The notes: generated by a model from the letters alone, not told the origin. Shown: positions 2,126 to 40,324, counted from the first letter of the stretch. The stretch: DNA of 64,000 nucleotides from an uncultured Chloroflexia bacterium (GCA_963746865.1 CAVVDB010000001.1:6432-70431), one strand, 5' to 3'. Numbers and translations: made by a program.

Positions 2126-3404
2126 TCAGCGGGCCGTACGCTGCCAGCTCATCTCAGGATCGACGGTCGCGGGCAATTCGCGCCAGGTATTGGCCGCCAC
2201 ATCGATCACGATCGGCATGCCGGCATTGCCGGCCGGCAGCGACAGGAGCGACGTGCCGTCCGGTGACCACTCGAACCGGGACCCGTTGCTGGTCGGGACG
2301 GGGCCGACGCCGATCACCCTGCCGTCCTTGATCGAGATGATCCCGATCGAGCGGATCGTCTCCGCTTCCGTGGGAGCGTCAAGGAACCACCGATTGAAGG
2401 CGATCCGGGTCCCGTCCGGCGACACGGCAAGTTGGCCCTCGAACCAGGGGCCGGGCTCCAGCGATAGCTGCCGTGCACCGGTGCCGTCCGCATTGACGAC
2501 GTGGATCCGGTACTGCCTGGGATCAGCTGGCAGATGCTGGCCATAGACGACCATCGACCCATCGGGCGAGAACTGCCAATCGCCGATCCCAGGCCCGCCG
2601 TCGATGGAGATCTCGGCCTTGATCAGCGGCGTGACGTTCGATCCGTCGGCATCCATCAGGTACAGGCCGGCGTCGGACGTGGCTTCGCGAGAGAACAGGA
2701 TCCGCCTGCCGTCGGGTGGCTGGAAGGCGATCCCGGTCTGGAACGTGAGGACGTGCTTCACGTCGACCCGGTCGCTGTCATAGCGATCGAGCCCCTCCGG
2801 GCTCATGTTGTACACGAAACGGCTATCGGGGCTCCAGAGCAGGTCGCCCTTCTCACCGGGCAGCGGCTTGTCGGAGACGACCATCGGGTTCGATCCGTCG
2901 GCGTTGGCGACCATGACGTCGTACGCCTCCGAGCCGCCGGTGTCGTTGCAGGCGCAGGAACTCGATCCGTTGCCCGTTCGGTGAGAAGACCGGCGACGAG
3001 TCGATGCCGGGACCGGCGACGATCGTCCTGACCTCCCCGGTCACCGGATCGACCGTCATGATGTCGCTGCCCGACGTCAACGCGAGCAATCCGTTCCCGG
3101 CGACGCCGAACGGCGACGGGACGCTCTTCTGGCGGGAACCGACGAGGGCGACGGCTGCCGCGACCAGCAGGGCGATGATGACCAGCGCCACCGCGATCGA
3201 CCGGATCGGCAGGCGCGGGATGAACGTGGGTCGGCTTGCGATATCAGCCATGGGGATCCACCTTCCTGGGATGGCCCAGGCCGGCCGCTGTCGCGAGCGA
3301 GTCGCGGTGGCCAGGACCTCATCTCGATAGTCGGGGGTCGGTCCCAGGTAGAGGTCCTCGAGGATGTCGGGCAGCTGACGCTCGAAGCGAGCCGAGGTGG
3401 TCAT
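2126..3404 (-). CDS. Putative anti-sigma factor 1: cytoplasmic N-domain, TM helix, TolB/PD40 beta-propeller (one frameshift near 2950)
   Basis: ATG at 3404 overlaps the sigma stop (ATGA); MTTSARFERQLPDILEDL..RQRPAW N-terminus, TM IAVALVIIALLVAAAVALVG, repeated FSPNG/WSPDS/FSPDG/WSPDG motifs across two frames. Confidence 0.8.
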
Positions 3405-3965
3405 GCGACCTGCCCTCCGGGGACCGGCTCCGGGGCCGGGTCGGGCTCGGCCGTCACCGTCAGGCGCATCGCGGCGAGCGCGTAGTGCAGACGGGACTTG
3501 GCCGTGCCGAGCGGGATGCCGAGGGACGCCGCCACTTCCTGCAGCGGCATCCCGAGGAGGTAGTACATCGCGACGACCGCACGATGACCGGGGTCGAGAC
3601 GCCGAAGCGCCCCATCGACCAGGTCGCGGTCGGCCAGCGCGCCCGACAGGTCGGATTGCACCGGCGAGTCGATGCGGCGTGATCTCGACCTCGACCGGGC
3701 GCCGTCGTCGGCGTCGGGCCAGATCGAGACAGGCGTTGACGGTCAGTCGGCGCAGCCAGGCATCGAACCGCTCGGGGTCGCGGAGACCCGGCAGGTCGCG
3801 CCAGGCGCGGATGAGGGCTTCCTGGACCGCGTCGCGCGCGAGCTCCGGGTCCCGGAGGATGAGGCGGGCGGCCGCGTCCAGCCGCGCGAGGGCAGGGTCG
3901 ACCAGTCCGGCGAAGGCGTCATGATCGCCTCGCCTCGCGCGGTCGACAAGCTCTCGCTGGTCCAC
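3401..3965 (-). CDS. ECF RNA polymerase sigma factor 1 (frameshift near 3670)
   Basis: Region 2 (ARDAVQEALIRAWR..FDAWLRRLTVNACLD) in ORF 2853..3965; region 4 (LQEVAASLGIPLGTAKSRLHYA) in ORF 3401..3661. Confidence 0.9.
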
Positions 3966-4010
3966 GGTCGCCTCGACTGTGCCACGACCTGGGCGGTCGT
4001 GTTCGACAGG

Positions 4011-4040
4011 GTATGGCGTCGCCGTCAGGCGAAAGGTTCA
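4011..4040 (-). promoter_or_regulatory. Putative ECF-type (autoregulatory) promoter of cassette 1
   Basis: TGAACC-N16-CGCCATAC upstream of the sigma gene; similar motif upstream of the other two ECF genes. Confidence 0.55.
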
Positions 4041-4074
4041 CTGACGCCCGCCGTCACCCGCCCTGACTCGTCGA

Positions 4075-4249
4075 ATATCGACACCATCGCTCGCTGCGGG
4101 GGTTGGGAGCCGATAGTGCAGGGTCCGTACCGCCGCGTACGAGCGGCCATGCACGGATCGCGCTTGTCAGACTCGGGAGGTCACCCGAAACGGGCTGCGT
4201 GAACACCGTGACGGACCCACAGCCGCCCGGATAGCGATGGCGTCGATAT
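4075..4249. repeat. Intergenic ~175 bp element bounded by inverted repeats
   Basis: atatcgacaccatcgct (4075-4091) versus agcgatggcgtcgatat (4233-4249), 16/17 complementary. Confidence 0.7.
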
Positions 4250-4268
4250 CGGCAGGCGGAGGGCCTAC

Positions 4269-5906
4269 CTAGACTTTGGCGCGATCCTTGAGGATCCGCT
4301 CGGCCGCCAGCTTGCCCGGCGCGCCCATCACGCAGCCACCCGGGTGCGTTCCAGAACCGCACTGGTAGTAGCCGTCGATCGGGGTGCGGTACTGGCTCCA
4401 GCCCGGCGCCGGCCGGAAGAAGTACATCTGCGGGGCCAGGAACTCGCCGGCAAAGATGTTGCCTTCCGACAGGCCGACCGTCCGCTCGATGTCGAGCGGG
4501 GTCCGGATCTCGCGCTGGAGGACCAGGTCGCCGAACCCAGGGAAGAACGACTCGAGCGTCGCCTGGACGGTGTCCCCGAACCCTTCCTTCTCGGTGTCCC
4601 AGTCGCTCCCGCGCAGGTGATACGGGGCGTACTGGATGAAACAGCTGAGGACCGCCTTGCCGGGCGGCGCCATGTCCGGGTCGACCATCGACTGGACGGC
4701 GCAGTCGATGTACGGCCGCTTCGAATACCAGCCGTATTTCCCGTCGTCGTACGCGCGCTCGAGGTACTCCATCGACGGCCCGATGTTGGTGAACCCGCGG
4801 TACTGGTCGGTCCGATCGCCGAGCGCCGGGAACCGTGGTGGCGCGTCGAGGGCGAAGTTGACCTTGGCCGATGTGCCCTGGAAGCGGAAGCGCTCGATCG
4901 TGTCGACCAGGTCGGTCGGGAGCTCGCGCGGTTCGACGAGCTCGAGGAATGTCCGCCGCGGGTCGAGCGCCGAAACGACGACAGGGGCGTAGAACTCCGT
5001 GCCGTCGTCGAGGGCCACGCCGGTCGCCCGGCCGTTCTTGGTGATGACGTTGGCGACCGGCGACTCGAGCCGGATCTCGGCGCCAAGGGCCCGCGCGGCC
5101 CGGGCCAGGACCTGGGTGAACCCGCCGTTGCCGCCCTTGTGGAACGACCAGGCCCCGAACTCGCCGTCGTGCTCGCCGAGGATGTGGTACAGCAGGACGA
5201 GCCCGGAGCCCTGTGAGTACGGCCCGACCTTGGTGCCGATGATCGCCGACGAGGCCAGGTACCCCTTGAGGATGTCCGACTCGAAGTAGTCGTCGAGGAA
5301 GTCCGCGACCGACCCGGTCAGCAAGCGCACGGCGTCGTGGAGGACCTTCTTGTCGAGCTTGCGGAAGCGCTGGCCGAGCATCGCCAGGGCGACGAGCTCC
5401 TCGGGGTCGTCGCTGAAGAGGTCGGGCGGCGCCTGGTCGAGGAGCGGCTTGATCGCCTGGAGCACCTTGTTGACGTCGTGGTTGAAGGCGTCGTAGGCGT
5501 CCGCGTCATGCGGACTGTGGCGGGCGATCTCCTTGAGGTTTTCGCCATGATCCTGCCCGAGGAGCAGGTAGTCGCCGTCCTCCTTCGGGCAGAAGGTGGT
5601 CGGCATCAGGATCGGCATGAAACCGTGCTTGACGAGATCGAGGTCCTGGACGATCTCCGGCCGAAGCAGGCTGAGCGCGTACGAGAAGGTCGTGAACCAG
5701 AACCCCGGCCGCAGCTCCTCGGTGATGGCCGCTCCGCCGACGAGGTGTCGTCGCTCGAGCACGAGCGTGCGCAGGCCGGCCCGGGCGAGGTAGGCGCCGT
5801 TGGTCAGGCCGTTGTGGCCGCCGCCGATGACGATCGCGTCGTAGGTGCGATCGGCCTTGGTGGACCGCGGGGCCGGCTTCTTCGGGGGCTTCGGAGTCTT
5901 CGGCAT
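4269..5906 (-). CDS. Phytoene dehydrogenase-like NAD(P)/FAD-dependent oxidoreductase
   Basis: YDAIVIGGGHNGL dinucleotide fold, LERR..GGAA, C-terminal YRTPIDGYYQCGSGTHPGG. Confidence 0.88.
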   Translation of the reverse strand: MPKTPKPPKKPAPRSTKADRTYDAIVIGGGHNGLTNGAYLARAGLRTLVLERRHLVGGAAITEELRPGFWFTTFSYALSLLRPEIVQDLDLVKHGFMPILMPTTFCPKEDGDYLLLGQDHGENLKEIARHSPHDADAYDAFNHDVNKVLQAIKPLLDQAPPDLFSDDPEELVALAMLGQRFRKLDKKVLHDAVRLLTGSVADFLDDYFESDILKGYLASSAIIGTKVGPYSQGSGLVLLYHILGEHDGEFGAWSFHKGGNGGFTQVLARAARALGAEIRLESPVANVITKNGRATGVALDDGTEFYAPVVVSALDPRRTFLELVEPRELPTDLVDTIERFRFQGTSAKVNFALDAPPRFPALGDRTDQYRGFTNIGPSMEYLERAYDDGKYGWYSKRPYIDCAVQSMVDPDMAPPGKAVLSCFIQYAPYHLRGSDWDTEKEGFGDTVQATLESFFPGFGDLVLQREIRTPLDIERTVGLSEGNIFAGEFLAPQMYFFRPAPGWSQYRTPIDGYYQCGSGTHPGGCVMGAPGKLAAERILKDRAKV

Positions 5907-5907
5907 G

Positions 5908-7110
5908 TCAGGCGGTCCTTCGCTCGGGGTTGAACAGGGGTGTCCGGGCCACCACGGCATCGAAGTACTCGTAGCGGTGATTGACCGCCATCTCGAGCTT
6001 CACGCGTGACCCCGGCGCCGCCCGGTCCAACGGCACGCGGGCGAGCGCGATGTGGCGTTGGAGCATCGGCGAGTACATCTGGCTGGTCGCGTAGCCGAGC
6101 TGGTTCAGGTCGTCGTCGTAGATGTAGTACTCGTCCTGGATCGGGGTGTGGTCCTTGGGCGGGATGAGCCCGGCTTCGTCGTAGATCCGGTCGTACTCGC
6201 GCCAGTCCACGACGAGGCCACTGAGCTTCCACCGCGACGTCCGGTGCTTGAGCTCACGCCGGATCGCGTCGCGACCGATGAACTGGCGGTCGCCGGCGTC
6301 GATGTCGCGGACCATCCAGCCGAGCCCGAGTTCGATCGGCGTCGTCCGGTCGGCGTCGGTCCACGCGAATCGACTGTTGTGGAAGTCGACGTCGAGGAGG
6401 ACGAGTCCGGCCTCGATGCGGGCCATGTACAGGGCGGTCAGGCCGATCGGCACGACCCCCTGGCCGCGGCTGGCGGCCCAGACCGCGTCCCAGACCGCGA
6501 GCGCGTTGCGCGCCGGGATCCAGAGCTCGAAGCCGAGGTCGCCGGTGAAGCCGGTCCGCGAGACGTGGACCGGGACCTTGCCGACCATGGCCTCGGCCGA
6601 CGCCGAAGTAGGGCAGGTCGCGTGACGACCGGGGTCAGGCGTGGCGAGGATCGCGCGCGAGCGGGGGCCCTGCACGGCGAGGACGGCCCACGCATCGGAG
6701 ACATCCTCGATGGCGACATCGAGCCGACCGACGAGACCCTCGAAGTAGGCGAGGTTCGGCTCCGCCGCGGTGAGCACGAACTCGTCGGGCCCGAACCGGA
6801 GGACGACGCCGTCCTCGACGATGAACCCGCGGTCGTCGCACCAGACCGTGTACTGAGCGTGGCCCGGGGCGCACGTCCGGATGTCGCGGGTCAGGACGCC
6901 GGCCAGGAAGCGCTCGGCGTCCGGGCCGGCGATCCGGTACTTGTACAGCGGCGACGAGTCGAACAGGCCGGCGCTGTTGCGGATCGCGAAGTACTCGAAC
7001 TTCTCGGACATCTGGTAGCGGGTCGCCGCCAGCGTGTTCGACCAGTGCTCCCAGAGGCCCGTCTCGTTGAGCGCGGTCAGGCGCTTGTGGAAGGGCGACG
7101 TTCGGATCAT
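5908..7110 (-). CDS. Aminomethyltransferase (GcvT-family, THF-dependent) protein
   Basis: IRNSAGLFDSS, AVQGPRS, SRTGFTGDLGFEL and ARIEAG motifs; short out-of-frame patch near 6600-6640. Confidence 0.88.
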   Translation of the reverse strand: MIRTSPFHKRLTALNETGLWEHWSNTLAATRYQMSEKFEYFAIRNSAGLFDSSPLYKYRIAGPDAERFLAGVLTRDIRTCAPGHAQYTVWCDDRGFIVEDGVVLRFGPDEFVLTAAEPNLAYFEGLVGRLDVAIEDVSDAWAVLAVQGPRSRAILATPDPGRHATCPTSASAEAMVGKVPVHVSRTGFTGDLGFELWIPARNALAVWDAVWAASRGQGVVPIGLTALYMARIEAGLVLLDVDFHNSRFAWTDADRTTPIELGLGWMVRDIDAGDRQFIGRDAIRRELKHRTSRWKLSGLVVDWREYDRIYDEAGLIPPKDHTPIQDEYYIYDDDLNQLGYATSQMYSPMLQRHIALARVPLDRAAPGSRVKLEMAVNHRYEYFDAVVARTPLFNPERRTA

Positions 7111-7230
7111 GGCCGAGACGATACGGGAGCCGCGCCGGCGCGGAGCGGGTGGCGTCTCGCCGGGCGAGCCAGCCGACGTGAACGGCTCAGTGTCGAGTCC
7201 CGGCGGCAGGACGCCGCCGGAACGTCGGAC

Positions 7231-8523
7231 TCAGGGTGCGAGACGCTGCCAGGCGGGACTGCTGCTCGTGGTCCAGGGCATGGTCCTGGACTTGCCGGTC
7301 AGTGGGTCCAGGAGCACCTGCGGCATGGCCCGCCCGGAGGCGTCCGCGGGATTTCCCAGGACGGAGGTGTCATCGGGCGCCCATTCCCAGGATGTGCAGC
7401 ATCCGCCATCGATGGCGCCCGGGACGTCGGTCTCGACTCCGAGGCTGCTCCCGTCCGCGGGGACGATGACGACCCGGACATCCTCGAAATCGTCCGTGTA
7501 GCCGCGACGGCTGATCAGCCACGACCCGTCGTTGGACCAGGCGTCCGGCGCTTCCCACACGGCACCGGGATGCGTCGGGGACGGTCGATCGCCGCTCCCG
7601 TCGGCTGCGACGACATGGCTGATCGGCCGTCCCGAGCCCGACTCGACCCATTCGTAGTAGGCGATGTGCGATCCGTCCGGCGACCACAGCGCTTCGGTGG
7701 GATGTCGCCCGGGAGCGGGCTCGCGGATCGTTCGGACGGTGCCGCTGTCGACATCGACCGCGTACAGGCCCTGGCTCACATCGTCCAACAGGAGGCCGCC
7801 GCGGAACAGGATCTCGGCACCGTCAGGCGGTCGCCATGAGGCCAAAGAAACCGGGAGACCCGGGTCGAGCCGGCGGATGCCGCTGCCATCGACCTTCGCG
7901 ATGAACAGTTCCCCGATCGGCTCGGGCCCCACCACGAGGATCTCCGTTCCGTCCGGGGAGAAGGCGTAGCCTGCGATGCCTGCGATCGGCTCCGGGGTCA
8001 CCGTCGTGAGCCGAGTCCCATCCGCGTTGGCGACAACGAGCTGCCCGGGACTGGCCTCGTCGTCCAGCTGCTTTCGCTCGAACACGAACCGCGTGCCGTC
8101 ACGCGACCAGACGGGCCGCAGGTCGATGGCTGGCCCGGTCACGACCGCCACGGACGTGCCGGTGGCGGGATCGGCCGTGTAGATGTCTCCATCCTTGACG
8201 TAGGCCACGAGGCCGTTCCGGGCTTGCCCGAACGGCGCCGGGACGCGACGCTGCGAGCCGATCACGAAGGCCAGACTCGCGATGAGGAGCAGGAGGATCA
8301 GGGTCGCCGCCGCGATCGGTCGCCACGGCACCTGCCGGACGAACGCGGGCTGACGGGCGATGTCAACCACGGGGAGCCACCTTTCAAGGAGGGTCCAGGC
8401 CGGCCGCTGGCGGGTGCGAGCGGTCAGCCCGAGAAGGTCGTCGAAGTAGTCGGGCGTGTGGGGCTGCGAGATCTCGTCGAGGATCGCCGGGAGGTGCCGT
8501 TCGAAGCGATCGGTCGGCATCAT
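7231..8523 (-). CDS. Putative anti-sigma factor 2: N-domain, TM helix, TolB/PD40 beta-propeller
   Basis: ATG at 8523 overlaps the sigma stop; MMPTDRFERHLPAILDEI..RQRPAW, TM helix, WSRDG/FSPDG/WSPDG/WSNDG repeats; paralog of 2126..3404. Confidence 0.85.
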   Translation of the reverse strand: MMPTDRFERHLPAILDEISQPHTPDYFDDLLGLTARTRQRPAWTLLERWLPVVDIARQPAFVRQVPWRPIAAATLILLLLIASLAFVIGSQRRVPAPFGQARNGLVAYVKDGDIYTADPATGTSVAVVTGPAIDLRPVWSRDGTRFVFERKQLDDEASPGQLVVANADGTRLTTVTPEPIAGIAGYAFSPDGTEILVVGPEPIGELFIAKVDGSGIRRLDPGLPVSLASWRPPDGAEILFRGGLLLDDVSQGLYAVDVDSGTVRTIREPAPGRHPTEALWSPDGSHIAYYEWVESGSGRPISHVVAADGSGDRPSPTHPGAVWEAPDAWSNDGSWLISRRGYTDDFEDVRVVIVPADGSSLGVETDVPGAIDGGCCTSWEWAPDDTSVLGNPADASGRAMPQVLLDPLTGKSRTMPWTTSSSPAWQRLAP

Positions 8524-9084
8524 GCGAGCTGCCCTCCCGGGATCGCGGCCGTCGTCCTTGTCTCGTCGACCAGGATCGCGGCGCGCATCGTGCTCAGCGA
8601 TCGATGCAGGCGGGATTTGGCCGTCCCCAGTGGGATCCCCAGGGTGGCGGCCACGTCGGGCAGTGGCATCCCGAGGAAGTAATGCATCACCACGATGGCG
8701 CGCCATTCGGGGTCGAGGTGCCGGAGCGCCTTGTCTACGACGTCACGGTCGACGATCAACGACGCGAAATCGGCGACGGCCGGACCGTCGATCGGGGTCA
8801 GTTCGACCTCGATCGCCCGGTGCCGGCGGCGACGCAGCGATGTCGATGCAGGAGTCGACCACGAGCCGGCGCAGCCAGGCGTCGAACCGGTCCGGGTCGC
8901 GAAGCGCCGGCAGGGTCCGCCAGGCGCGGACGAATCCATCCTGGACCGCGTCGCGCGCGAGCTCCGGGTCCCGGAGGATCAGTCGAGCCGCCGCGTCCAG
9001 CCGCGCGATGGCCGCGCCGGCAAGCGTCGCGAAGGCGTCATGATCGCCTCGCTTGGCCCGCTCGACGAGGTCTCGCTGGTCCAC
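8520..9084 (-). CDS. ECF RNA polymerase sigma factor 2 (frameshift near 8840)
   Basis: Region 2 in ORF 8743..9084 and region 4 (LPDVAATLGIPLGTAKSRLHRS) in ORF 8520..8939; close paralog of sigma 1. Confidence 0.9.
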
Positions 9085-9128
9085 GACAGCCCCAGGTCTC
9101 GGCGCGGCCGTCTGGTCGCGCTCTGATG

Positions 9129-9158
9129 GTATGCCGTCCTTCCGCGATGAATCGTTCC
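9129..9158 (-). promoter_or_regulatory. Putative ECF-type promoter of cassette 2
   Basis: GGAACG-N16-CGGCATAC. Confidence 0.55.
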
Positions 9159-9360
9159 CGGGCAGGCCGGCGGCGGGGTCGGGAGCGACCGCCCTGGTGA
9201 AGCCCGCGCAACTGGCGCGGTCACATCCTATGAGTGGTCCGTTCGGCCCGAACGTTCATGCGTACTCCACATTGACGCGCCGCGCCCGCTACGCCTAGGC
9301 TCCCGCTGAGGGCGCCGCGCCACATGTGCGGGGTAGCCGAGGGATGGAGGGAACTCACCG

Positions 9361-9615
9361 ATGATTCGGCGGATCACAGGGATCATCCTTGGCGTGCTGG
9401 CATTCTTCCTCGTGTATTGGGTCACCGGCCTCGGGACGCCGTCCCAACCGAACTGGGCGCTTGCCGCTCTAATCGGGCTGGTGGTGGCACTCATCTGGCC
9501 GTGGCTCTTCGGGCTGTACGCGGTCCGGCGCGTTCGGAACAAGCGCCAGAACGAGATCGACGAAGAGGTCCAAAAGCAGCTCGCCGAGCAGCAGAACAAC
9601 CCACCAGCTTCCTGA
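9361..9615 (+). CDS. Small membrane protein (2 TM helices, charged C-tail)
   Basis: GGAGG RBS; possible TTGACG-N18-TAGGCT promoter at 9272-9301; two hydrophobic helices. Confidence 0.7.
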   Translation: MIRRITGIILGVLAFFLVYWVTGLGTPSQPNWALAALIGLVVALIWPWLFGLYAVRRVRNKRQNEIDEEVQKQLAEQQNNPPAS

Positions 9616-9651
9616 TCTTCCGGCCTCGCGTGCAGGAGGCCTGATCGGCGC

Positions 9652-10923
9652 GTGATCTCGCGCGCCGCAGGGCGGTTCGTTCCACGCCTCCTGGTCGACG
9701 CCCCTGATTTCCGCCGGCTCTGGCTCGGCCAGACCATCTCGGTCTTCGGCGACCAGGTCACCCAGCTCGGGTTGCCCCTGGTCGCCGTCCTGACCTTGGG
9801 CGCGAACCCCGCCCAGATGGGCACCCTCACCGCGGTCGGGCTCCTGCCGCACCTGCTCTTCTCCCTGCCGGCCGGCGTGTGGCTCGATCGTGTCCGATCC
9901 CGGCGGCGGCTGATGATCGCGGCCGACCTGGCTCGTGCGGCGTTGATCGCAAGCATCCCGATCGCGTTCCTGGCCGGCGCGCTGTCGATGCCGCAGCTGT
10001 ACGTGGTCGGCTTCCTCGCCGGCTCGCTGGCGGTCGTCTTCGACCTGTCATGGAACACGCTCTTCGTGACCGTCACGCAGCGCGACCAGTACGTCGCGGC
10101 GATGGCCCTGCTGAACGGGAGCCGGTCGCTCGCATCGGTCGGCGGCCCGACCGTCGGGGGGATCCTGGTCCAGGTCTTCGGAGCTCCGCTGGCGATGCTG
10201 GTCGACTCGGTGTCCTACCTCGGCTCCGTGTTCTTCCTGCGTCGGATCCGCTCGCCCGAACCCCCGGTCGAACCGGAGGAGGGCACGACGCGCGACCGCC
10301 TGCTGGCCGGTCTGTCGTTCGCGTTCAACGACTCGATCATGCGCCCGACCCTGCTGTCGGTCGCGATCGTCAACCTGTTCACGTTCGCGTCCGGGGCACT
10401 GTTCATCCTGTACGCCACGACCGAACTCGGGGTCTCGCCAGGAGCCCTCGGGCTGGCGCTGGGGACGGGGGCCATCGGCGCCGTCATCGGTGCCCTTGTC
10501 GCCACCAGGATCGGTCGGCGGATCGGGCTCGGGCCGGCGTATGCACTGGGCCTGATCATCTTCCCGGTCTCGCTGCTGTTGATCCCGCTCGCATCGCCGG
10601 GAATGCCGATGATCCTGATCCTGGCCCTTCTGTTCGGCTCCGAGTTCGGTGCCGGATTCGGAGTGATGATCCTCGACATCAACGTCGGGGCGATCATCTA
10701 CGCACGGACTCCGGATCGGATCCGGGCGCGTGCCACCGGGGCCTTTCGGTTCGTGAACTACGGCGTCCGTCCGGTCGGGGCGCTCCTCGGTGGCGTTCTC
10801 GGCACGGTCGTCGGCGTTCACGAAGCGATCTGGGTGTCGACGATCGTGGCCTGCGCCGGCGTCCTGTTCCTCGTCGGCTCACCGGTCCTTCGCCTGCGAG
10901 ACCTCCCGGAGGCACCCGAGTAG
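9652..10923 (+). CDS. MFS transporter (DHA3/macrolide-efflux-like)
   Basis: FRRLWLGQTISVFGDQV and GVWLDRVRSRRRLMIAADLARA motifs, ~12 TM. Confidence 0.9.
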   Translation: MISRAAGRFVPRLLVDAPDFRRLWLGQTISVFGDQVTQLGLPLVAVLTLGANPAQMGTLTAVGLLPHLLFSLPAGVWLDRVRSRRRLMIAADLARAALIASIPIAFLAGALSMPQLYVVGFLAGSLAVVFDLSWNTLFVTVTQRDQYVAAMALLNGSRSLASVGGPTVGGILVQVFGAPLAMLVDSVSYLGSVFFLRRIRSPEPPVEPEEGTTRDRLLAGLSFAFNDSIMRPTLLSVAIVNLFTFASGALFILYATTELGVSPGALGLALGTGAIGAVIGALVATRIGRRIGLGPAYALGLIIFPVSLLLIPLASPGMPMILILALLFGSEFGAGFGVMILDINVGAIIYARTPDRIRARATGAFRFVNYGVRPVGALLGGVLGTVVGVHEAIWVSTIVACAGVLFLVGSPVLRLRDLPEAPE

Positions 10924-10943
10924 GGCGGCCAGCGTCTGCGGGC

Positions 10944-11696
10944 CTACTCCCAGCGGAAGGTCCGGGCGGCCAGCACGGTCGTCGCGACGGCCCACACGGC
11001 CAGGACGATCAAGGGCGACGCAGCGCTCGTCGCCTCCGACCCGAGCGCCACACGGAATGCGTCGGACAGGGCCGCCGCCGGGAGGAGCGGGGCTAGCGCG
11101 GCCAGCGGACCTGGCAGGTGCGACACCGGCAGGACGATCCCGCCGAGCAGGAGGAACGCGATGAACAGGCCGTTGGCCAGGGCCAGTGTCGCCTCCGCTC
11201 GCAGCGCACCGGCCAGCAGCAGTCCGAGACCGGCGAATGCGACGCTGCCTAGCAACAAGGCGGCGACGAAGAAGACCGGCGAACCGCCCCCCTCGGGTCG
11301 CCAGCCAAGCGCGAGCGCGGCGACTGAGACGAGCAACACGACCTGACCGACTTCGACCACGAGGACCGCCGCCATCTTGGCGGCGAGCAGGCCACTGCGG
11401 GACAACGGCGACCCGCCGAGTCGCTTGAGGACGCCGTAGCTTCGCTCATAGGCGGTCGCGATCCCGAGGTTCACCAGGCTCGTCGCGATGACGGCCAAGG
11501 CCAGCGCCCCAGGGAGGAGGAAGTCGACCGGCGCGCCGTCGCCCGTGGGCAGGATGCTGACGCTGGCGAAGAACAACAGGACGACGATCGGGATGACGAC
11601 CGTGACCAGGACGTTCTCGCCGCGCCGGGACGTCAGGGTCAGTTCCATGCGGGTCTGCGCCAGCGTCGCGGCCACGGGCGAAGCGGGGCGGCTCAT
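10944..11696 (-). CDS. ABC-2 type transporter permease
   Basis: IATAYERSYGVLKRLGGSPL motif, ~6 TM, ends in FRWE. Confidence 0.9.
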   Translation of the reverse strand: MSRPASPVAATLAQTRMELTLTSRRGENVLVTVVIPIVVLLFFASVSILPTGDGAPVDFLLPGALALAVIATSLVNLGIATAYERSYGVLKRLGGSPLSRSGLLAAKMAAVLVVEVGQVVLLVSVAALALGWRPEGGGSPVFFVAALLLGSVAFAGLGLLLAGALRAEATLALANGLFIAFLLLGGIVLPVSHLPGPLAALAPLLPAAALSDAFRVALGSEATSAASPLIVLAVWAVATTVLAARTFRWE

Positions 11697-12649
11697 GGGA
11701 ACCCCTCGCGACCGCGCTCAACCAGGTCCAGGTAGACGTCCTCGAGGCTGCCCCCGCTCGTCCGCAACTCCACGATGAGCCGGCCGGAGGCGGCGCACCA
11801 GCCGGCGAGGGCATCGACCAGGACCGGATCCGGAGCGACGCCCTCGAGCCGGTACCGAGCGCCGCTCGCGTCCGGGACCACGGCCGCCTCCGGGGCTCGT
11901 TCGCGCAGGGTCGCCGACAGGCTCGCCACCTCGTCCCCGCCGAGCTCCAGGTCGAGCCGGAACCGAAGCTGCGGCGTCGAACCCGCCGCCAGCGCGGCGG
12001 GACTCCCGGACGCGACGATCCGGCCGCCGTCGATCACGCAGATCCGGTCGGCCAACCGCTCGACGTCGGTCAGATCGTGGCTCGTCATGAGGATCGCCGC
12101 GCCGGCGTCGCGCAGGTCGGCGACGATCTGGCGGGTCGCCGCCCGTCCCTCCGGGTCCATCCCGGCGGTCGGCTCGTCGAGGATCAGGACCTCCGGCCGC
12201 CCGACAAGCGCGAGGGCGAGCCCCAGCCGCTGGCGCTCGCCGCCGGACAGCCGGCGGTAACCGGTCCCGGCCACCGCCCGCAAGCCGACCAGCTCGAGGA
12301 GTTCATCCGGATCACGCGGGTCGACGTGGAAGCCGCCGTATTGCCGGAGGGTTTCCCGCGGGTGCGCGCGCGGATCGATCCCGCCGCCCTGGAGCATCAG
12401 CCCGACGCGCGCCCGCAGCGCCGGCCCACCCGTCGCGGGGTCGAGTCCCAGGACACGCGCCCGACCGTCATCAGGTCGGCGGTAGCCCTCGACGATCTCG
12501 ACCGTTGTGGTCTTGCCGGCGCCGTTCGGCCCGAGCAGGGCGACGAGTTCGCCCGGCGAGACCGTCAGGGAGATGCCGTCGAGCACGGTCCGCGGGCCGT
12601 ACCGCTTGACCAGCCCCTCGACGACGACCGGCGGGTCGCCGCCGGTCAC
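11693..12649 (-). CDS. ABC transporter ATP-binding protein
   Basis: GPNGAGKTT, LSGGERQR, ILDEPT, SLEDVYLDL. Confidence 0.93.
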   Translation of the reverse strand: MTGGDPPVVVEGLVKRYGPRTVLDGISLTVSPGELVALLGPNGAGKTTTVEIVEGYRRPDDGRARVLGLDPATGGPALRARVGLMLQGGGIDPRAHPRETLRQYGGFHVDPRDPDELLELVGLRAVAGTGYRRLSGGERQRLGLALALVGRPEVLILDEPTAGMDPEGRAATRQIVADLRDAGAAILMTSHDLTDVERLADRICVIDGGRIVASGSPAALAAGSTPQLRFRLDLELGGDEVASLSATLRERAPEAAVVPDASGARYRLEGVAPDPVLVDALAGWCAASGRLIVELRTSGGSLEDVYLDLVERGREGFP

Positions 12650-13164
12650 GACGCGATCCGGGCGTACTGGCGCTCGAACTCCGCGTCGGTCAGTTCACCG
12701 ATCTGGATCGACCGGATCACGCCCATGCGATCGACGAAGTAGGTCTGCGGCCGGCCGGCCACGCGATAGGCCGTCTTGATCGCCTTGTCCGGGTCGACGA
12801 TGGTCGGCCAGTCGGCGCCGTACTGCGTGACGAAATCGCGCGCCGGCTCGACCGGATCGTCGGTCAGCACGCCCACGATCGTCAGGCCGTCACCCGCGTG
12901 CTGCTGCAGCTTCGCCTCGAGGAGGGGGAACTCGTCCCGGCACGGGACGCAGCTCGGACCCCAGAAGTTGACGACGACCGGCTTGCCGGCCAGGGTCGAA
13001 AGATCGAACGCCGAGCCGTCGAGCGTTGACCCGACGATCGCGGGTGCCTGGGCCCCGACGGCCGCGTGCGACGCATCCCCCTGCCCGGATCGAACGAACC
13101 AGACGAATGCCGCGGTCGTCAAGCCGGCGACGACAAGGGCAGCCAGGATCGTCCGGCGCGGCAT
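12646..13164 (-). CDS. TlpA/ResA-family thiol-disulfide oxidoreductase
   Basis: N-terminal TM anchor, VVNFWGPSCVPC, PQTYFVD. Confidence 0.9.
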   Translation of the reverse strand: MPRRTILAALVVAGLTTAAFVWFVRSGQGDASHAAVGAQAPAIVGSTLDGSAFDLSTLAGKPVVVNFWGPSCVPCRDEFPLLEAKLQQHAGDGLTIVGVLTDDPVEPARDFVTQYGADWPTIVDPDKAIKTAYRVAGRPQTYFVDRMGVIRSIQIGELTDAEFERQYARIAS

Positions 13165-13176
13165 GATGCGGGAAGG

Positions 13177-14271
13177 CTACTTGAGGGTCGCCGTCCCCGT
13201 CATCGCCGGGTGGACGGTACATACGAACTTGTACTCGCCGGCGGGTTGTGCCGGGACGTTGTAGATGCGGGTCTCGATCCCCGGGAAGATGTCGCCCTTG
13301 AACACCTCGGTCCCGGACCCGGCGATCAGGGCGACGTTGTGGGGGGTCGCAGGGTCCTCGTTATCGAACGCGATCGTGAACGGCTTGCCGGCCGGTGCGG
13401 TCCACGTCTTCTCGACGAAGGCCACGCCCTTGGCCTGGACGTGGACGTCGGCCGCGGGACCGCTCGCCGGCGGCGGGGCCCCGCTCGCCCCGCCCGATGG
13501 GGCCGGCGCACCCGAACCGCCCGGCGTCCCGGTCCCGCCGTTGGCCTGCCCGGTGGCGAACACGCTCGACTGGAGGATCGCGGCGCCGACGGTCAGGACG
13601 ATGAGCGAGCCGAGGAGCCGGGACGGCACCCGAGAGGTCGGGATGTTCTCGAGGTGGCCGGTCGTGTCCGCTTCGACCGTCTTGCGGTACTCCCCGACGG
13701 CGTCGGTCAGCCAGCCGACGAGGGTCGAGATCAGGGCGATGACGCCGACGGCCAGCAGCCAGCCCTCGAAGACGAGGCCCAGGAAAAGCAGGAAGACCCC
13801 GAACGCCCCGAGGAACGGGCGCCACGACGGCCCCGGCATGTGGACGCCCGGCGGCGGTCCGTCCTCGACGACGGCCGGCAGCGCCGGGGCGGTCGCGCCG
13901 ATGTCGTGGTCGTAGATGCGCAGCCCCTCGGCGAGCCAGTAGAGCAGCGTCAGGGTCAGCGCGATCGCCCCGAGGACCAGGGCGACGCCGCCGAAGACCA
14001 GCCCGATCAGGATCAGGAAGGTCCCGGTCGCGGCGAACGCCGGGGCGAACGACGGCCCCGGCATGTGGATCCCGGGCGGTGTGCTGGGCTCGATCCGTTG
14101 CATCCCGCGCCGAGCCGGCGGCGCCTTGACGAGCCGGCGGAAGACGCCCATCAGGAGGGCGACGACGATGACCAGGAAGAGCACCGGCAGGACGCCGATG
14201 ATCGCGCTCCAGTCGGGTGACACGAACTGCGAGGTCAGTTCGAGGAGGTTGGTCCAGATCCGCTCGAGCAT
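13177..14271 (-). CDS. Membrane protein with two oxidase subunit IV (CtaF C-half)-like repeats fused to a C-terminal cupredoxin
   Basis: PPG(I/V)HMPGPS-hairpin occurs twice; C-terminal HNVAL...CTVHPAM type-1 copper ligands. Confidence 0.8.
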
Positions 14272-28341: not shown

Positions 28342-28364
28342 TCGCATGGAGCAGGTACGCAGCG

Positions 28365-28865: not shown

Positions 28866-28876
28866 CGGGAGGGGTG

Positions 28877-29020: not shown

Positions 29021-29055
29021 TCTCGGCGCCGGGCCTCGCGGCTATACTCCGCGCG

Positions 29056-33498: not shown

Positions 33499-33504
33499 GC
33501 CGGG

Positions 33505-34007
33505 TCAGGAGCCCTTCGCGGGACCGTCCAGGATGGCTTGGATCTGGACGACGTGTTCGGCGAGGTGGCCGATGATGAACCGGTCGGGCATGGCCCCCAC
33601 CGTCATCTCACCGAGTCGGGGATGGAGGCCGCGTCGCCCGAGGTCGGCCGGGGTCAGGGTCAGCCAGCGCCGCTCGAACCGCTCGAGGCCGCTGAAGGTA
33701 CGGTCGTACAGCTCGCGGACCGGCAACGTCCGGTCGCGTTCCAGGATCCCGATCCGAAGCGTATCGGTCGCGATCCGGCCGAACGGGACGGGTTCCGGGC
33801 TGCCGGCCAGGACCCGCTCGATCTCGCCCAGCCAGAAGGGCGCCATCTCGCTGAGATGGGCGAGCACCTCGGCGGGCCCCAATGGGCCTCGTCGGAGTGG
33901 TCGAAGGTCGCGGCCAATGGCCACGGCGCGCCGTCCTCGACAGGGCCGCGGGTCGCCTGAAGCCCGGCCGTGGCGGCGCGGAGCCGTCCGAGAAGGTCGT
34001 CGTCCAT
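33505..34007 (-). CDS. DinB-family protein (frameshift near 33875)
   Basis: WG..EVLAHLSEM, HPRLGEM, HLAEH; divergent from hppD. Confidence 0.8.
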
Positions 34008-34065
34008 GGCGGTCAGTGTGGCACGACCGGCGTAGCATTGGCGGCCACAGCAGGGGAGACCCGCG

Positions 34066-35235: not shown

Positions 35236-35363
35236 CGAGGCTGCCGCTGGGCTGGACCTACTTCGAGATCTTGATCGAGTCGATGCGTGACGACGCATCG
35301 TTCATTCTTCGGTTCGGTATCCTCTCTCGACGGTCGGGTTCGGGACCACAGGGAGGGCGTCTC

Positions 35364-35858
35364 GTGCAGTTCTATCCGTGGATCGTGCTGGCCCATGTCG
35401 TCGTGGTGATCGTGGCGTTCGGGGCGCACGGCGTCTCGGCCTACTCGATGTTCGCGGCTCGGAGCGAGCCGGATCGGGTCCGGCTCGGCGCCGTGCTGGA
35501 CCTGTCGAGCAGGTCGCTCAACCTGGCCGGCTGGGGTCTCCTGGCCGCGGTCGTGCTCGGGATCGTCGCGTCGATCATGGGCGGTCATTTCGGGCGGCTG
35601 TGGCCGTGGGCCTCGATCATCGTCGTCGTGCTGATCTTCCTGACGATGACGCCCATGGCCGCCAACCCGATGGGCGGGGTCCGCAAGGCCCTGGGCCAGC
35701 CCGTCCGGGGTGACAAGGCGGGCGATCCGCCTCGCCAGCCGGCGAGCGACGCCGACCTCGCCGCTGCGCAGGCCCGGCTCCGCCCGGAACTCGTGGCCAC
35801 CATCGGGGTCGTCGGGCTGGTGATCCTCGTCTGGCTGATGGAGTTCAAGCCCTTCTGA
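35364..35858 (+). CDS. DUF2269-like membrane protein
   Basis: GGAGG RBS, 4 TM helices, ends in WLMEFKPF. Confidence 0.7.
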   Translation: MQFYPWIVLAHVVVVIVAFGAHGVSAYSMFAARSEPDRVRLGAVLDLSSRSLNLAGWGLLAAVVLGIVASIMGGHFGRLWPWASIIVVVLIFLTMTPMAANPMGGVRKALGQPVRGDKAGDPPRQPASDADLAAAQARLRPELVATIGVVGLVILVWLMEFKPF

Positions 35859-35886
35859 CAGGTCGCGCGCGGCTAGACTCGACGTC

Positions 35887-36907
35887 GTGAGGCTCGCCCA
35901 CGTCCGCGAGCGACACGCGCCGGCAGGTTCGCCGTGGCGGTCGGCAGCGGCGCTCGACCAGGAGAGTCCCCCGGGCGGTGGCTCGACCTCGAGGTCGCCA
36001 GGCGACGCGCGGTCGCCGGCGCAGCCCGCCCTCGCCCACGATTCGGCGCTGCACCGGCAGCCGGTGACGACGCTCGACGACCACATGGCGCGCGGCCTCC
36101 GCGTCGAGGCGCTGCGCGACCTCGTCGACGACTTCGAACCTCGAAGCGCCCGACGACGACGCCGTCCTGGCGGCGTCGGACCTCGCCTTCGGCCCGCCCG
36201 ATCCTCCGCCCGCCGTCGGTGCGCGACTTCTACGCGTTCGAGGGGCACGTCCGGACGATGTGGGAGCGACGCGGCGGGGAGGTGCCCGAGGCCTGGTACC
36301 GCCTGCCGATCTTCTACTTCAGCAACGTCTCGGAGATCCGGGGGCCGGACGAGCCGGTCTGGTCGCCGGCGGCGTCGCACGAGCTCGACTACGAGCTGGA
36401 GGTGGCGGCCCTGGTGGACACGCCGTGCGTCGACCTCACCGCGGACCGCGCCGAGGAGGCGATCGGCGGCTACATGATCTTCGACGACTGGTCGGCGCGC
36501 GACCTCCAGCGCGACGAGACGACGGTCCGCCTGGGACCCGCCAAGGGCAAGGACTTCGCGAGTTCGTTCGGACCGTGGCTGGTGACACCCGACGAGCTGG
36601 CCGATGCGCGACAGGGGACCGGCTACGACCTGGCGATGACCGCCGAGGTGAACGGCGTCGAGACGAGCCGCGGACGATGGTCGGATGCGCAGTTCTCGTT
36701 CGGCGAGATGCTCGCCCGGGCGTCCGCCGACGCCCGCCTTCGCGCCGGGCGACCTGATCGGGAGCGGGACGGTCGGGACCGGCTGCCTGCTCGAGGTCCG
36801 CGAGGCGACGCTCGGGCGGTACCTCGAACCCGGCGACGAGGTGGTCCTCCGCGATCGAGCGCCTCGGGGCATTGCGCACACCCGTCATCGCGCGGTCCAC
36901 CGGATGA
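35887..36907 (+). CDS. Fumarylacetoacetate hydrolase family protein (several frameshifts)
   Basis: RDFYAFEGHV, LDYELEVAA, DDWSARD, AKGKDF, GDLIGSGTVGTGC across three frames. Confidence 0.85.
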
Positions 36908-37405
36908 TCACGATCGAGCCGATGACGGCCGACGACTGGCCGGCGGTCCGCCGCATCTACGCCGAGGGGATCGCGACCGGCGACGCCACGCTCGAGCGCG
37001 AGGCGCCCGACTGGAGCCATTTCGATCATTCCCACCCGCCCGAGTGCCGGCTCGTTGCCTTGCGACGGGACGAGCCGGCTGGTGGTCGGTTGGACGGCTC
37101 TCGGGCACTACTCGGCCCGGAAGGTCTACAGCGGCGTCGCCTGGGAAAGCGTGTACGTGGCCGACGGCGCCCGCGGGCGTGGGGTCGGTCGGGCGCTCCT
37201 GGAGGCCCTCATCCCGGCGGCCGAGGCGGCGGGCTTCTGGACCCTCCTCGCCGGCGTCCTCGTCGACAACGCCCCGAGCCTCGCCCTCCATCGGGCGGTC
37301 GGCTTCCGCCGAGTCGGCATCCAGCGGGCGATGGGCCAGGACGCCAGCGGCCGCTGGCGCGACGTCGTCCTCCTCGAACGCCGGAGCCCGATCGTCGGTC
37401 GTTGA
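36904..37405 (+). CDS. GNAT N-acetyltransferase, phosphinothricin/MnaT-like (frameshift near 37070)
   Basis: IYAEGIATGDATLE, ESVYV...RGRGVGRALL, NAPSLALH. Confidence 0.85.
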
Positions 37406-38199
37406 TCAGGCCGTCGGTCGGAGGACGACGACGTCGATGGTCGCCTCCCGCCCGCGGATGTCGAGCGTCCGGCGTTCCGCGTCGGGTTCGAGCCGGTCGG
37501 CCGCTTCGGCCGCGGCCACGCTGACCAGCAATTCGCCGGCCGCCGCCGCCGACGCCAGACGGGCCGTCGTGTTGACCGCGTCGCCGATGGCCGTGAAGTC
37601 GTCGACCGCCCCACCCGGCCCGGTGGGCCCGACGTACGCCTCACCGGTGTGGACGGCGGCGCCGATCGGGATCGGCCCCATCGGCGTGGCATCGGAGCGA
37701 CCGGCTCGGGCGACCAATTCGGTCGCGGCATCGATCGCGGCTGCCGCGTGCGCGGGTCCCGACACGCCGCCGAAGAACAGGCCGATGACCTCGTCGCCGA
37801 CGTACTTGTCGACCAGCCCGTCGTGATCGAGGATCGCCTTCGACCCGATCTCGTAGAACCGAACGAGGAAGTCGTGGAACTCCTTGGGTCGCAGCCGCTC
37901 CGCCGATGGCGTCGATCCGCGAACGTCGGTGAACAGCATCGTGACCGGGATCTCGGAACCGGTCTGGCCGATCTTCTGATACGCCCGGATACAGGTCATG
38001 CACATGGCCGGGTTGCCCGGATAACGGGCGAACCCGAGATGGCGCAGGACCGCGCCGCCAGGACCGCTGAATGGCGCCGCGCACATCTTGCAGCGCGGGG
38101 CCGATGGGACGTGCTTCATCCGGTTGCGGAACCTGGCGAACCCGGGGTCCTCGCCGGTCAGGACGGCCCGCAGGGCGCGTCCGGCGGTTGCGTCGACAT
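37406..38199 (-). CDS. Class III adenylate cyclase with an N-terminal Cys4 domain (frameshift near 38175)
   Basis: FTDVRGST, DKYVGDEV, DFTAIGDAVNTTARL; CKMC...CMTC. Confidence 0.88.
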
Positions 38200-38255
38200 G
38201 GCACGACTCTACGCCCGGCGCCTAGAATCGTGGCCTCGCAGGGAGAACGCGCCCG

Positions 38256-39480
38256 ATGTTCTACGCCGCACACGGGAGCATCCCACCCAAGCGCCACACC
38301 CAGCACCGCGCCCCCGACGGCTCGCTCTACGCCGAGGAGCTGTTCGGGGTCGAGGGGTTCACGGGGCGCTCGTCACTGCTCTACCACCTCGTCCCGCCGA
38401 CTCGGACGCATCGGATCGAACCGGTCGCCGATCATCGTCATCGAGGAGGCCGACGACGGCTATCACCACCATCGGCTGATCGACGCCGCGGGCGTCGAGC
38501 CGCACGGCGACGCGGTCACCGGACGGATCCCGCTCTTCTTCAACAGCGACATCGTGATGGGCGTCGTCCGACCGGCCGACGCGATGCCCGAGACCGTCTT
38601 CTATCGCAACGGCGAGGCCGATGAGCTGCTCTATGTCCACGAGGGCGACGGTCTCCTGGACACCAACTTCGGGCCGATCCGCTACGGCCCCGGTGACTAC
38701 CTCGTGATCCCCATCGGGACGACGTGGAGCCTTGCTCCGGACGCCGGCTCCGTCCAGCGGATGCTCTACCTCGAGTGCCCGTCGGAGATCGAGGCGCCCA
38801 AGCGCTACCGCAACGACTACGGGCAGCTCCTGGAGCATTCGCCCTTCTCCCAGCGCGACATCCGCCTCCCAAGCGACGTCCCCGCCCGCACGGACGAGGG
38901 CGACTTCCGCGTCCACGTCAAGATGCGGAACCGGCTGACCGCGTACCACTACACCCACCACCCGTTCGACGTCGTGGGCTGGGACGGGTACCTCTGGCCG
39001 TTCGCGTTCAATATCGGCGACTTCGAACCGATCACCGGACGCGTCCACCAGCCGCCACCGGTCCACCAGACGTTCGCGGCGCGGAACTTCGTGGTGTGCT
39101 CGTTCGTGCCGCGCAAGTTCGACTATCACCCGCTGGCGATCCCGGCGCCGTACAACCACTCGAACATCAACAGCGACGAGGTCATCTACTACGTAGCCGG
39201 CAACTTCATGAGTCGCCGCGGGGTGGGGATCAGCTCCTTCACGCTCCACCCGGCGGGCATCCCGCACGGGCCGCATCCGGGCACGGCCGAGGCGTCGATC
39301 GGCAAGGAGGCGACCGAGGAACTGGCGGTCATGGTCGACACCTTCCATCCGCTCAAGATCACCCGGCAGGCGGCCGCCCTCGAAGACGCGCGCTACCCGT
39401 ATTCCTGGCTGCCGGCCGAGGACGCCTCCGGCGAGGCCCGCGAACTCAGCGAACGCGGCCCGGAGGCGTTCCCGGACTAG
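38256..39480 (+). CDS. hmgA: Homogentisate 1,2-dioxygenase (frameshift near 38430)
   Basis: IPPKRHTQ, GRVHQPPPVH, PYNHSNINSDEV, LHPAGIPHGP. Confidence 0.93.
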
Positions 39481-39496
39481 ATCCCGAAGCGCTGCG

Positions 39497-40324
39497 TCAG
39501 GACGGACTCGGGCTGGACCTCGGCGACGGCGACACGGTGACGGCATCCTGCGGGCGGAGATCGACCGTGGCCAGGATCTGCTTGAACCAGTCCTTGTCGT
39601 CGACGTCGTACAGCACGATGAGGTAGCCGCGGCCATCGACCCAGGTCAGGGCCGTCAAGCCCCCCTCCGGGCAGAGGACGGCGATCATGCCCGGAGCGCC
39701 GTCGATCGAGACCGGCTCGGTCGCCGGAGGACAACTGGCACCGAATGCCGGTTCGTTCAGGGTCTTGGTCGCCCATTGCTCGCCGGTCTGGCCACCGAGC
39801 GGCTGGGAGGCAAGATTGAGGAACGGCGAGCCGGACACCACAGCGGCGATCTGGTCCCCGCACGACGTGGGCTCACATTCATTCGGGAGCCGGGACGTCC
39901 AAGGCTGTGTCGCGATGTTTTCGACCGTCCAGCCGGCCGGATATGAGACCGAGATCCCGTGGATGGTGGATGTGAATGACCCCGTAAGGGCAGGCGGAGC
40001 CGCGGCCGACGGGCTCGGCGATGGACTCGGGGTCGGCGATTGCGTCGGCGAGGCCGATGGCCCACCGCCGACCCCACCTTGTGGGGCCGGGTTGAGTAGG
40101 TACAGCCCTCCGAGCCCGACGGCCACGACGGCCACCGCGGCGAGGGCGAATCGAGACGTTCCATTCATGGTCGGATACCTCCACGGCACCCACCTCGGGC
40201 GCCGTGTCTGATGGGTCGTTCGGGTGGTGACCGCGATCGCCCGGCTCGTGGCGTCGGGGAGCCTTGCAGGGCCCTCATCGAGCCACGCGGCGAGGATCGC
40301 GTCGGGATCGCGCTGGACGTTCAT
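39497..40324 (-). CDS. Putative anti-sigma factor 3: N-domain, TM helix, Pro/Ser linker, PsbP-like extracellular domain
   Basis: ATGA overlap with the sigma gene; AWLDEGP..LPD N-terminus; TM ALAAVAVVAVGLGGLYLL; SVSYPAGW. Confidence 0.75.
   Translation of the reverse strand: MNVQRDPDAILAAWLDEGPARLPDATSRAIAVTTRTTHQTRRPRWVPWRYPTMNGTSRFALAAVAVVAVGLGGLYLLNPAPQGGVGGGPSASPTQSPTPSPSPSPSAAAPPALTGSFTSTIHGISVSYPAGWTVENIATQPWTSRLPNECEPTSCGDQIAAVVSGSPFLNLASQPLGGQTGEQWATKTLNEPAFGASCPPATEPVSIDGAPGMIAVLCPEGGLTALTWVDGRGYLIVLYDVDDKDWFKQILATVDLRPQDAVTVSPSPRSSPSPS

Follow-up and report, generated by a model that had tools for sequence, protein, structure and literature searches.

A predicted second translation start in a family of anti-sigma-like genes of the Limnocylindria

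The stretch of DNA analyzed here, 64,000 nucleotides from an uncultured Chloroflexia bacterium (GCA_963746865.1, CAVVDB010000001.1:6432-70431; hereafter 'the window'), carries three cassettes in which a gene for a sigma factor of the extracytoplasmic function (ECF) type is followed by an anti-sigma-like gene. Together with their relatives in the class Limnocylindria, these anti-sigma-like genes are probably dual-start genes: each would encode a full-length protein and, from an in-frame internal start, a shorter isoform that keeps the membrane anchor and the ectodomain but lacks the module predicted to bind sigma. An earlier reading made from the DNA of the window alone (the sequence-only reading) had pointed to a Shine-Dalgarno (SD)-like block followed by ATG or GTG at codon 52 or 53 of all three copies, and each site that it quoted matches the minus strand exactly (Table 1). 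We describe below how often the site occurs among homologues, the codons in which it is written, and the explanations that compete for it.

Frequency, spacing and codon choice of the internal site

Homologues were collected with a hidden Markov model (HMM) of the N-terminal module (N-module). The 185 matches gave 160 unique genes once rows had been removed that were identical over the first 300 nucleotides, lacked a start codon close to position 1 of the model, or contained an N. The HMM-found set (n=87), selected without regard to codons or to the Met at the site, was used for frequency. A further 73 genes, from 80 loci found with a narrower subfamily alignment, were selected by a peptide pattern; as the pattern itself contains the Met, this set was used for codon choice only.

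A transmembrane (TM) helix is present in 84 of the 87 HMM-found genes, and 80 of these 84 have an in-frame ATG, GTG or TTG between codon 35 and the helix. A start in this region preceded by an SD duplex at or below -9 kcal/mol is found in 69/84 genes, against 75/876 length-matched windows taken downstream within those genes. Duplexes of this strength precede 6.6% of 2456 internal ATG codons genome-wide and 8.3% of 1539 other ATG or GTG codons in the family genes. The median duplex at the internal site, -11.4 kcal/mol, compares with -10.4 kcal/mol at the first, sigma-coupled start. In 64 of the 69 genes the spacing between AGG and the start codon is 9 nucleotides (the mode at first starts is 9-10 nucleotides), and the start falls at residue 52 in 56 and at residue 53 in eight of the 69. 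The SD-like block and its AGG lie 2-15 codons upstream of the TM helix. As is expected of in-frame internal initiation, the internal SD fits the organism's own anti-SD at the spacing of real starts. The feature occurs in both family-bearing orders of the class (the second is that of family f4, see below) and across ectodomain types.

Codon choice at the site has to be read against the composition of the host genome, which has 3.46 Mb in 9 contigs, 70% G+C, and a 16S rRNA whose 3' end, ...GGATCACCTCCTTTCT, is the canonical anti-SD. Among 1552 long open reading frames (ORFs), AGG and AGA have shares of only 3.8% and 0.7% of Arg codons, and the corresponding shares are 18.5% for GAA (Glu), 7% for GGA (Gly), 25% for GTG (Val) and 4.7% for TTG (Leu); genome-wide, CTG accounts for 43% of Leu and CCC for 24% of Pro. 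Homologues were divided by peptide motif into subfamily A (RQR..W....RW.P., 30 HMM-found genes) and subfamily B ([WR]R...M, 41 genes). In subfamily A the motif Arg is AGG in 29 genes and AGA in one, while the Arg pair of RQR, five codons upstream, is CGN in 60 of 60 instances; in subfamily B the motif Arg is AGG in 36 and AGA in one of the 41 genes. The remark of the sequence-only reading that the site is built from a codon rare in this genome thus extends to homologues. Immediately before the motif Arg of subfamily A, Glu is always GAA (25/25) and Gly always GGA (5/5); within the spacer, Leu is written only as CTT or CTC, with CTG absent, and Pro as CCC in 24 of 30 genes. The pattern-found set gives AGG in 57/58 and Glu as GAA in 53/55.

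The bias is confined to the neighborhood of the site. Over codons -6 to -2 of the HMM-found genes, Arg is written AGR in 78/96 cases versus 181/2021 elsewhere in the same genes, and Glu is written GAA in 27/27 versus 248/1007. When synonymous codons are resampled within each gene, the mean duplex weakens from the observed -10.2 to -5.4 kcal/mol. A 9-nucleotide block is invariant in 30 of 30 aligned DNA sequences with variable flanks, and synonymous-site conservation is locally raised at the site by statistics that ignore phylogeny.

The start codon follows the same rule. It is ATG in 25 and GTG in 5 of the 30 genes of subfamily A, and ATG in 35 of the 41 of subfamily B. Nine nucleotides past AGR, the 78 HMM-found cases show ATG 63 times, GTG five times and another codon ten times; in all, a start-capable codon (ATG, GTG or TTG) occupies the site in 67-69 of 84 genes. 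Val in place of Met is GTG in 9/9 cases and Leu is TTG in 2/2 (L162, which is orthologous to copy 3, and L171, from another order), so that what the site keeps is a start codon rather than a residue, as had been proposed. A test had been set beforehand, namely whether homologues encode the Arg as CGC or CGG and have a non-start codon at position 52, and it came out for a dual start. The A/T-ending codons said to flank the start are a real feature of the codons after it, though a modest one: G+C at the third position (GC3) of codon +1 is 0.54 versus 0.80 at control Met codons, and 0.72 versus 0.81 over codons +1 to +5. On these codon counts, the SD sequence, its spacing and the start-capable codon are under selection at the nucleotide level.

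Extent and architecture of the family

The host genome has about 45 ECF sigma matches, and 21 of the genes downstream of them share the N-module. The HMM matched all 24 further genomes of the genus and 161 of 301 genomes of the class Limnocylindria; this last tally counts four unpublished genomes (G156, G189, G274 and G319), of which the other results are independent. By family, the matches are 67/91 in f1, 90/103 in f4 (which belongs to another order), 3/92 in f3 and 0/12 in f2. Among 401 genomes drawn from the phylum, G000 being one of them, the HMM matched 31, of which only three, all with weak matches, lay outside the class. The Met and the SD are both absent from these three (L174-L176, from other Chloroflexota families). 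Judged by these matches, the family is restricted almost wholly to the Limnocylindria, soil bacteria of the phylum Chloroflexota. The HMM found no member in the 16 small genomes searched of the sister family f2 (G025-G040, 1.0-1.4 Mb). Fewer sigma factors are reported for the streamlined freshwater family in the part of the source available to us, a paper that counts sigma factors only (PMC13212565), and the lack of HMM matches in the f2 genomes is consistent with that lower number.

A genome may hold up to about 20 paralogues, which have 15-55% amino acid identity across the N-terminal region. Tandem members were seen at G054:C2:303978-311053, G109:C1:447121-450706, G080:C31:419-3932 and G051:C1:78947-82503; the steps of about 1.5-2.3 kb correspond roughly to one sigma plus one anti-sigma gene, so that several cassettes directly adjoin. 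Among the 160 unique genes, 155 begin in an ATGA overlap, as do all three window copies, whose start codon ATG shares bases with the stop codon TGA of the ECF sigma gene before it; this is the ATGA coupling that the sequence-only reading had described. A hydropathy window detects a TM segment in 154 of the 160. The proteins are thus encoded as co-oriented neighbors of a sigma factor with regions 2 and 4 only, and carry an extracytoplasmic domain behind one TM helix, two traits of transmembrane ECF anti-sigma factors.

Residues 1-100, which include the N-domain, have no match in Pfam or NCBIfam and no relative among solved chains, and the N-domain stands outside the recognized anti-sigma domain families such as zf-HC2/RsiW-like and RskA-like. 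Behind the N-module we found PD40, Kelch, family-3 solute-binding (SBP_bac_3) or DUF4232 ectodomains, or nothing recognizable, in a survey that scanned 38 proteins out of 64 complete ones: Kelch at L150, L017, L047, L154 and L163, SBP_bac_3 at L151, DUF4232 at L039, and PD40 at many loci. In public records, family proteins are named Tol component, dipeptidyl peptidase, WD40 or hypothetical protein, and never anti-sigma.

The window cassettes, their integrity and their surroundings

Coordinates of the three cassettes are collected in Table 1. The first starts of gene 1 (3418-3402) and gene 2 (ATG 8523-8521) have the same layout as that of gene 3. Among solved structures, the best sequence match of sigma 3 is PDB 5wuq, SigW with RsiW.

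Table 1. Sigma/anti-sigma cassettes of the window and their predicted signals (positions counted from the first letter of the window)
Feature	Position	Strand	Description
ECF sigma gene 1	3401..3965	minus	GTG 3965; stop TGA 3403-3401; one extra base near 3673 breaks the frame
Anti-sigma-like gene 1	2126..3404	minus	N-domain, TM helix ~3212-3144, PD40 beta-propeller; extra base near 2948 breaks the frame
Gene 1, putative internal initiation region	3249..3266	minus	SD-like GGAAGGTGG 3266-3258, spacer ATCCCC, ATG 3251-3249, codon 52
ECF-type promoter-like motif, sigma 1	4011..4040	minus	TGAACC ... CGCCATAC; recognized by eye and with a crude pattern
ECF sigma gene 2	8520..9084	minus	GTG 9084; stop 8522-8520; one extra base near 8833 breaks the frame
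Anti-sigma-like gene 2 (430 aa)	7231..8523	minus	N-domain, TM helix ~8325-8260, PD40 beta-propeller
Gene 2, putative internal initiation region	8368..8385	minus	SD-like GAAAGGTGG 8385-8377, spacer CTCCCC, GTG 8370-8368, codon 52
ECF sigma gene 3 (183 aa, intact)	40321..40872	minus	Sigma70_r2 and r4
Anti-sigma-like gene 3 (275 aa)	39497..40324	minus	N-domain, TM helix ~40156-40097, Pro/Ser-rich linker, ectodomain without known family
Gene 3, first (annotated) start	40322..40339	minus	GGAGG 40339-40335 within the end of sigma 3; ATG 40324-40322 over the sigma stop (ATGA)
Gene 3, putative internal initiation region	40166..40182	minus	GGAGGT 40182-40177, spacer ATCCGACC, ATG 40168-40166, codon 53
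Similar promoter-like motif, sigma 3	~40943-40915	minus	~71 nucleotides upstream of sigma 3

Copy 3 has a second AGG TGG (40195-40187) four codons ahead of the main SD, with a GTG directly after it; this GTG is unlikely as a start because no spacer precedes it. The copy therefore shows two rare AGG codons inside six codons.

Relative to a paralogue or orthologue, sigma 1 (about position 3673), anti-sigma 1 (about 2948) and sigma 2 (about 8833) each have one extra base. The paralogue used was the duplicate on contig C5, and the orthologue L042, whose counterpart of sigma 2 is a single frame; tblastn divides sigma 1 between two frames, and the C5 copy of sigma 2 has an extra base at a different place. 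The base at 2948 is absent from one short-read contig of run X5, the only informative place when contigs of four DNA runs, of sparse cover, were compared with window 2000-9300. Cassettes 1 and 2 may therefore be decaying copies with broken frames, or the three insertions may be assembly errors; cassette 3 is intact.

The C5 duplicate is inverted and diverged and extends over at least 14 kb (window 4-14000 versus G000:C5:10162-23601, 84-93% nucleotide identity), including cassettes 1 and 2 plus the intervening genes. On the 3' side of cassette 2, on the same strand, are genes resembling a GCV_T aminomethyltransferase and a flavin amine oxidase (window 5908-7110 and 4269-5960), and on the 3' side of cassette 1 is a gene for an acyltransferase-3 membrane protein (950-2077, minus strand).

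A conserved motif, TGAACC, about 17 nucleotides and CGCCATAC, stands some 70 nucleotides before the sigma starts in most loci, and a crude pattern for it detects the motif upstream of sigma in 52 of 126 loci. Its position upstream of the sigma gene suggests autoregulation. The same crude pattern found no internal ECF-type promoter for a short transcript within the sigma gene and N-domain (0/126), and we infer that one mRNA carries both starts.

Predicted products, rival explanations and known dual-start genes

A complex between sigma 3 and the N-terminal part of anti-sigma 3 (residues 1-52) was modeled from custom alignments of 26 rows each. The interface score ipSAE is 0.82, versus 0.01 for the best of 3 controls; the anti-sigma partner has a per-residue confidence (pLDDT) of at least 76, and runs have at least 79% of contacts in common. 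The ipSAE mark is reached by 58/80 solved complexes and 2/110 mismatched pairs, rates that are only rough with custom alignments. In the model, anti-sigma residues 7-43 contact sigma residues 12-59 and 106-173, so that the N-domain comes to lie between regions 2 and 4 of sigma. The model thus supports the view that residues 7-43 hold the sigma factor. The site had been described as lying between the N-domain and the hydrophobic segment, and it does fall downstream of the modeled interface and upstream of the TM helix. As the internal start (codon 52 or 53) is past this interface, the short form would be left without the predicted sigma-contacting residues. It would begin a median of 6 residues ahead of the TM helix. 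None of 69 predicted short forms has a lipobox-capable Cys, and the short form would therefore be a signal-anchored ectodomain with the topology of the long form.

We may then propose the following sequence of events. A single mRNA is probably transcribed from an ECF-type promoter that precedes the sigma gene; it would give the sigma factor and then, through the ATGA overlap and an SD of its own, the full-length single-pass membrane protein, whose first 45 or so residues would hold the sigma factor. The gene contains a second SD, equally strong by its predicted duplex and spelled with rare synonymous codons (GAA/GGA-AGG-TGG or TGG/CGG-AGG). Ribosomes loading at this SD, 9 nucleotides before the conserved ATG (sometimes GTG or TTG) of codon 52 or 53, would make the short isoform, with the same anchor and ectodomain and with every predicted sigma-contacting residue gone. 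For the role of the short form we prefer that of an extra working or sensing ectodomain, uncoupled from sigma. A more specific scheme, which is conceivable although we consider it rather unlikely, is a homeostat: the short form would be the working exo-protein, such as a membrane-anchored beta-propeller or solute-binding protein, and the full-length protein, made 1:1 with sigma through the ATGA coupling, a sentinel copy of it tethered to sigma. Damage, ligand load or proteolysis of the ectodomain population would release sigma onto the operon's own promoter, thereby replenishing the short form.

Several rival explanations need no functional second protein. That internal initiation does take place, merely as a fail-safe or as a by-product of a strong SD, with a short product that has no role and is turned over, is an unlikely reading; all evidence for a working initiation region applies to it equally, and any function of the short form is a proposal. 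However, SD, spacer, start and domain-boundary position are kept over two orders and in front of unrelated ectodomains, which would be costly for a by-product, and SD-like sequences within genes are otherwise uncommon (6.6-8.6%). Less probable still, in our estimation, is a programmed elongation pause, caused by anti-SD pairing or by the rare AGG codon, that times sigma binding or membrane targeting of the full-length protein and yields no second protein. Rare AGG codons and a strong anti-SD match 2-15 codons ahead of the TM helix would suit a pause, and the translational coupling of sigma and anti-sigma makes co-translational assembly conceivable. A pause, however, requires no start codon, and yet ATG, GTG or TTG is kept at 9 nucleotides, always as GTG when the residue is Val and as TTG when it is Leu; nor does a rare-codon pause need GAA or GGA before the Arg or TGG after it. 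The ribosome tunnel holds 30-40 residues. At about codon 50, residues 7-43 and the TM helix would both still lie within it.

The site could also be a fossil kept by descent and not by selection: a small anti-sigma module would have been fused to an ancestral gene for a membrane protein, whose ribosome-binding site and start would still be visible. One N-module before unrelated ectodomains fits such a history, and the short form resembles an ordinary signal-anchored protein; but paralogues have diverged to 15-55% identity with adjacent synonymous sites free to vary, yet retain AGG at the frequencies given above (29/30 and 36/41), where neutral decay would give CGN, as at the two nearby Arg positions. 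We regard this explanation as very improbable. Finally, the constraint could act on the protein only, R-W or W-R followed by M at the membrane interface, with the codons following from a local codon-pair preference. R, W, P and M are indeed conserved as residues. Codon-pair bias was tried as the cause of AGG and of GAA-AGG and rejected: across the genome, AGG encodes only 19/827 Arg residues of RW and 27/833 of WR, and Glu-Arg is written GAA-AGG in only 10/3801. Replacements of M by V or L, moreover, involve start-capable codons only. These genome-wide counts bring the protein-level reading close to refutation. Internal initiation is the only reading that covers SD, spacing, start-capable codon and position together.

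Several observations weigh against a dual start throughout the family. Of the 84 HMM-found genes, 15 lack a strong SD, the start codon or both, and the exceptions include G000 paralogues with neither Met nor AGG. L156 keeps AGG, yet has ACG (Thr) at the site; L154 has GTC there and an ATG two codons further. The sequences are kin, and counts therefore overstate their independence: after single-linkage clustering on the N-terminal 110 amino acids, the feature is found in 62/79 clusters at 80% identity, in 30/46 at 60% and in only 8/21 at 45%. From these cluster counts, it marks two or three big subfamilies, not each divergent member. A per-gene permutation gives p<=0.05 in only 22/80 genes, being individually weak because each gene's own AGG remains in the pool. 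Local mRNA structure had been expected to be low at the site; the mean local minimum free energy is -18.7 kcal/mol versus -19.9 kcal/mol at control Met codons, a difference too small to count. In the window, two of three cassettes contain frameshifts. The complex model may lean on solved sigma/anti-sigma pairs generally, the N-domain itself being without a solved relative. Finally, the lineage is uncultured, and both internal initiation and the second protein are predictions. As a separate matter, a conserved RNA structure that would mask the internal SD was considered and rejected (consensus of only -4.9 kcal/mol, no covariation).

The dual-start reading can be set beside known systems. In the holin/antiholin gene S of phage lambda, the starts of S105 and S107 are separated by two codons, and the two proteins differ by as many residues. 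The resemblance to this pair drawn in the sequence-only reading stands insofar as a single membrane-protein gene has, in both cases, a pair of in-frame starts whose products may oppose or modulate each other. It goes no further: the anti-sigma starts are 51-52 codons apart, so that a whole predicted sigma-binding domain differs, and these proteins of 275-430 amino acids with large ectodomains are not holins. With RsiW/SigW, the family has in common a gene overlapping the preceding ECF sigma gene, and a product in which one TM helix joins a short N-domain in the cytoplasm to an extracytoplasmic domain; unlike RsiW, the Limnocylindria proteins have an N-domain of about 45 residues without Pfam or NCBIfam match, and no internal start was found described for the known families.

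Closer in kind is arcB of Escherichia coli, in which an SD-like sequence and a GUG stand at a domain boundary and are conserved in 26 species; the product, ArcB-C, is the soluble C-terminal domain and was shown by Ribo-RET and by western blots with start-site mutants, according to the part of the preprint consulted (bioRxiv 10.1101/520783). In both systems an internal SD and start at a domain boundary of a signaling gene would give a truncated isoform from the same mRNA. ArcB-C, however, leaves the membrane, whereas the anti-sigma short form would keep anchor and ectodomain and lose the cytoplasmic partner-binding module; and the arcB start was shown experimentally, whereas the anti-sigma site is known from sequence and runs through a whole paralogous family. 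Other pairs of N-terminal proteoforms, such as CheA-L/CheA-S, the long and short forms of SsaQ/SpaO, IF2, ClpB and SafA, are listed in the consulted part of a 2026 review (PMC13515050). They resemble the predicted pair in being two in-frame products of one gene that differ by an N-terminal functional module, but no anti-sigma factor is among them, and the word 'anti-sigma' is absent from the main text of that review as consulted. Searches of the full-text literature, covering main texts, found no description of an internal start in anti-sigma factors, in agreement with the sequence-only reading, which knew of none for ECF anti-sigma factors. In-frame internal initiation is thus an established kind of event, and its predicted occurrence in anti-sigma factors appears to be new as far as we could find.

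The family also shows that internal starts may be detectable from synonymous codon choice alone in uncultured lineages, given a large family and a strong codon bias. For annotation, it means that proteins labeled Tol component or peptidase contain some 45 residues of an unrecognized, predicted anti-sigma domain. In the usual view, an ECF sigma/anti-sigma pair is a switch with one protein per gene, and translational coupling fixes the stoichiometry. A second start, conserved where the predicted sigma-binding module borders the membrane anchor, would, if true, add a third product to this two-gene operon, a sensor domain uncoupled from sigma, and would alter the way in which thresholds, decoys and outputs are modeled. 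Should the homeostat also prove true, each sigma/anti-sigma pair of these bacteria would be a self-contained two-gene homeostat, and this would account for the large number of cassettes in a genome, for the tandem arrays of about 1.6 kb without other genes in between, and for the free swapping of ectodomains behind one N-module.

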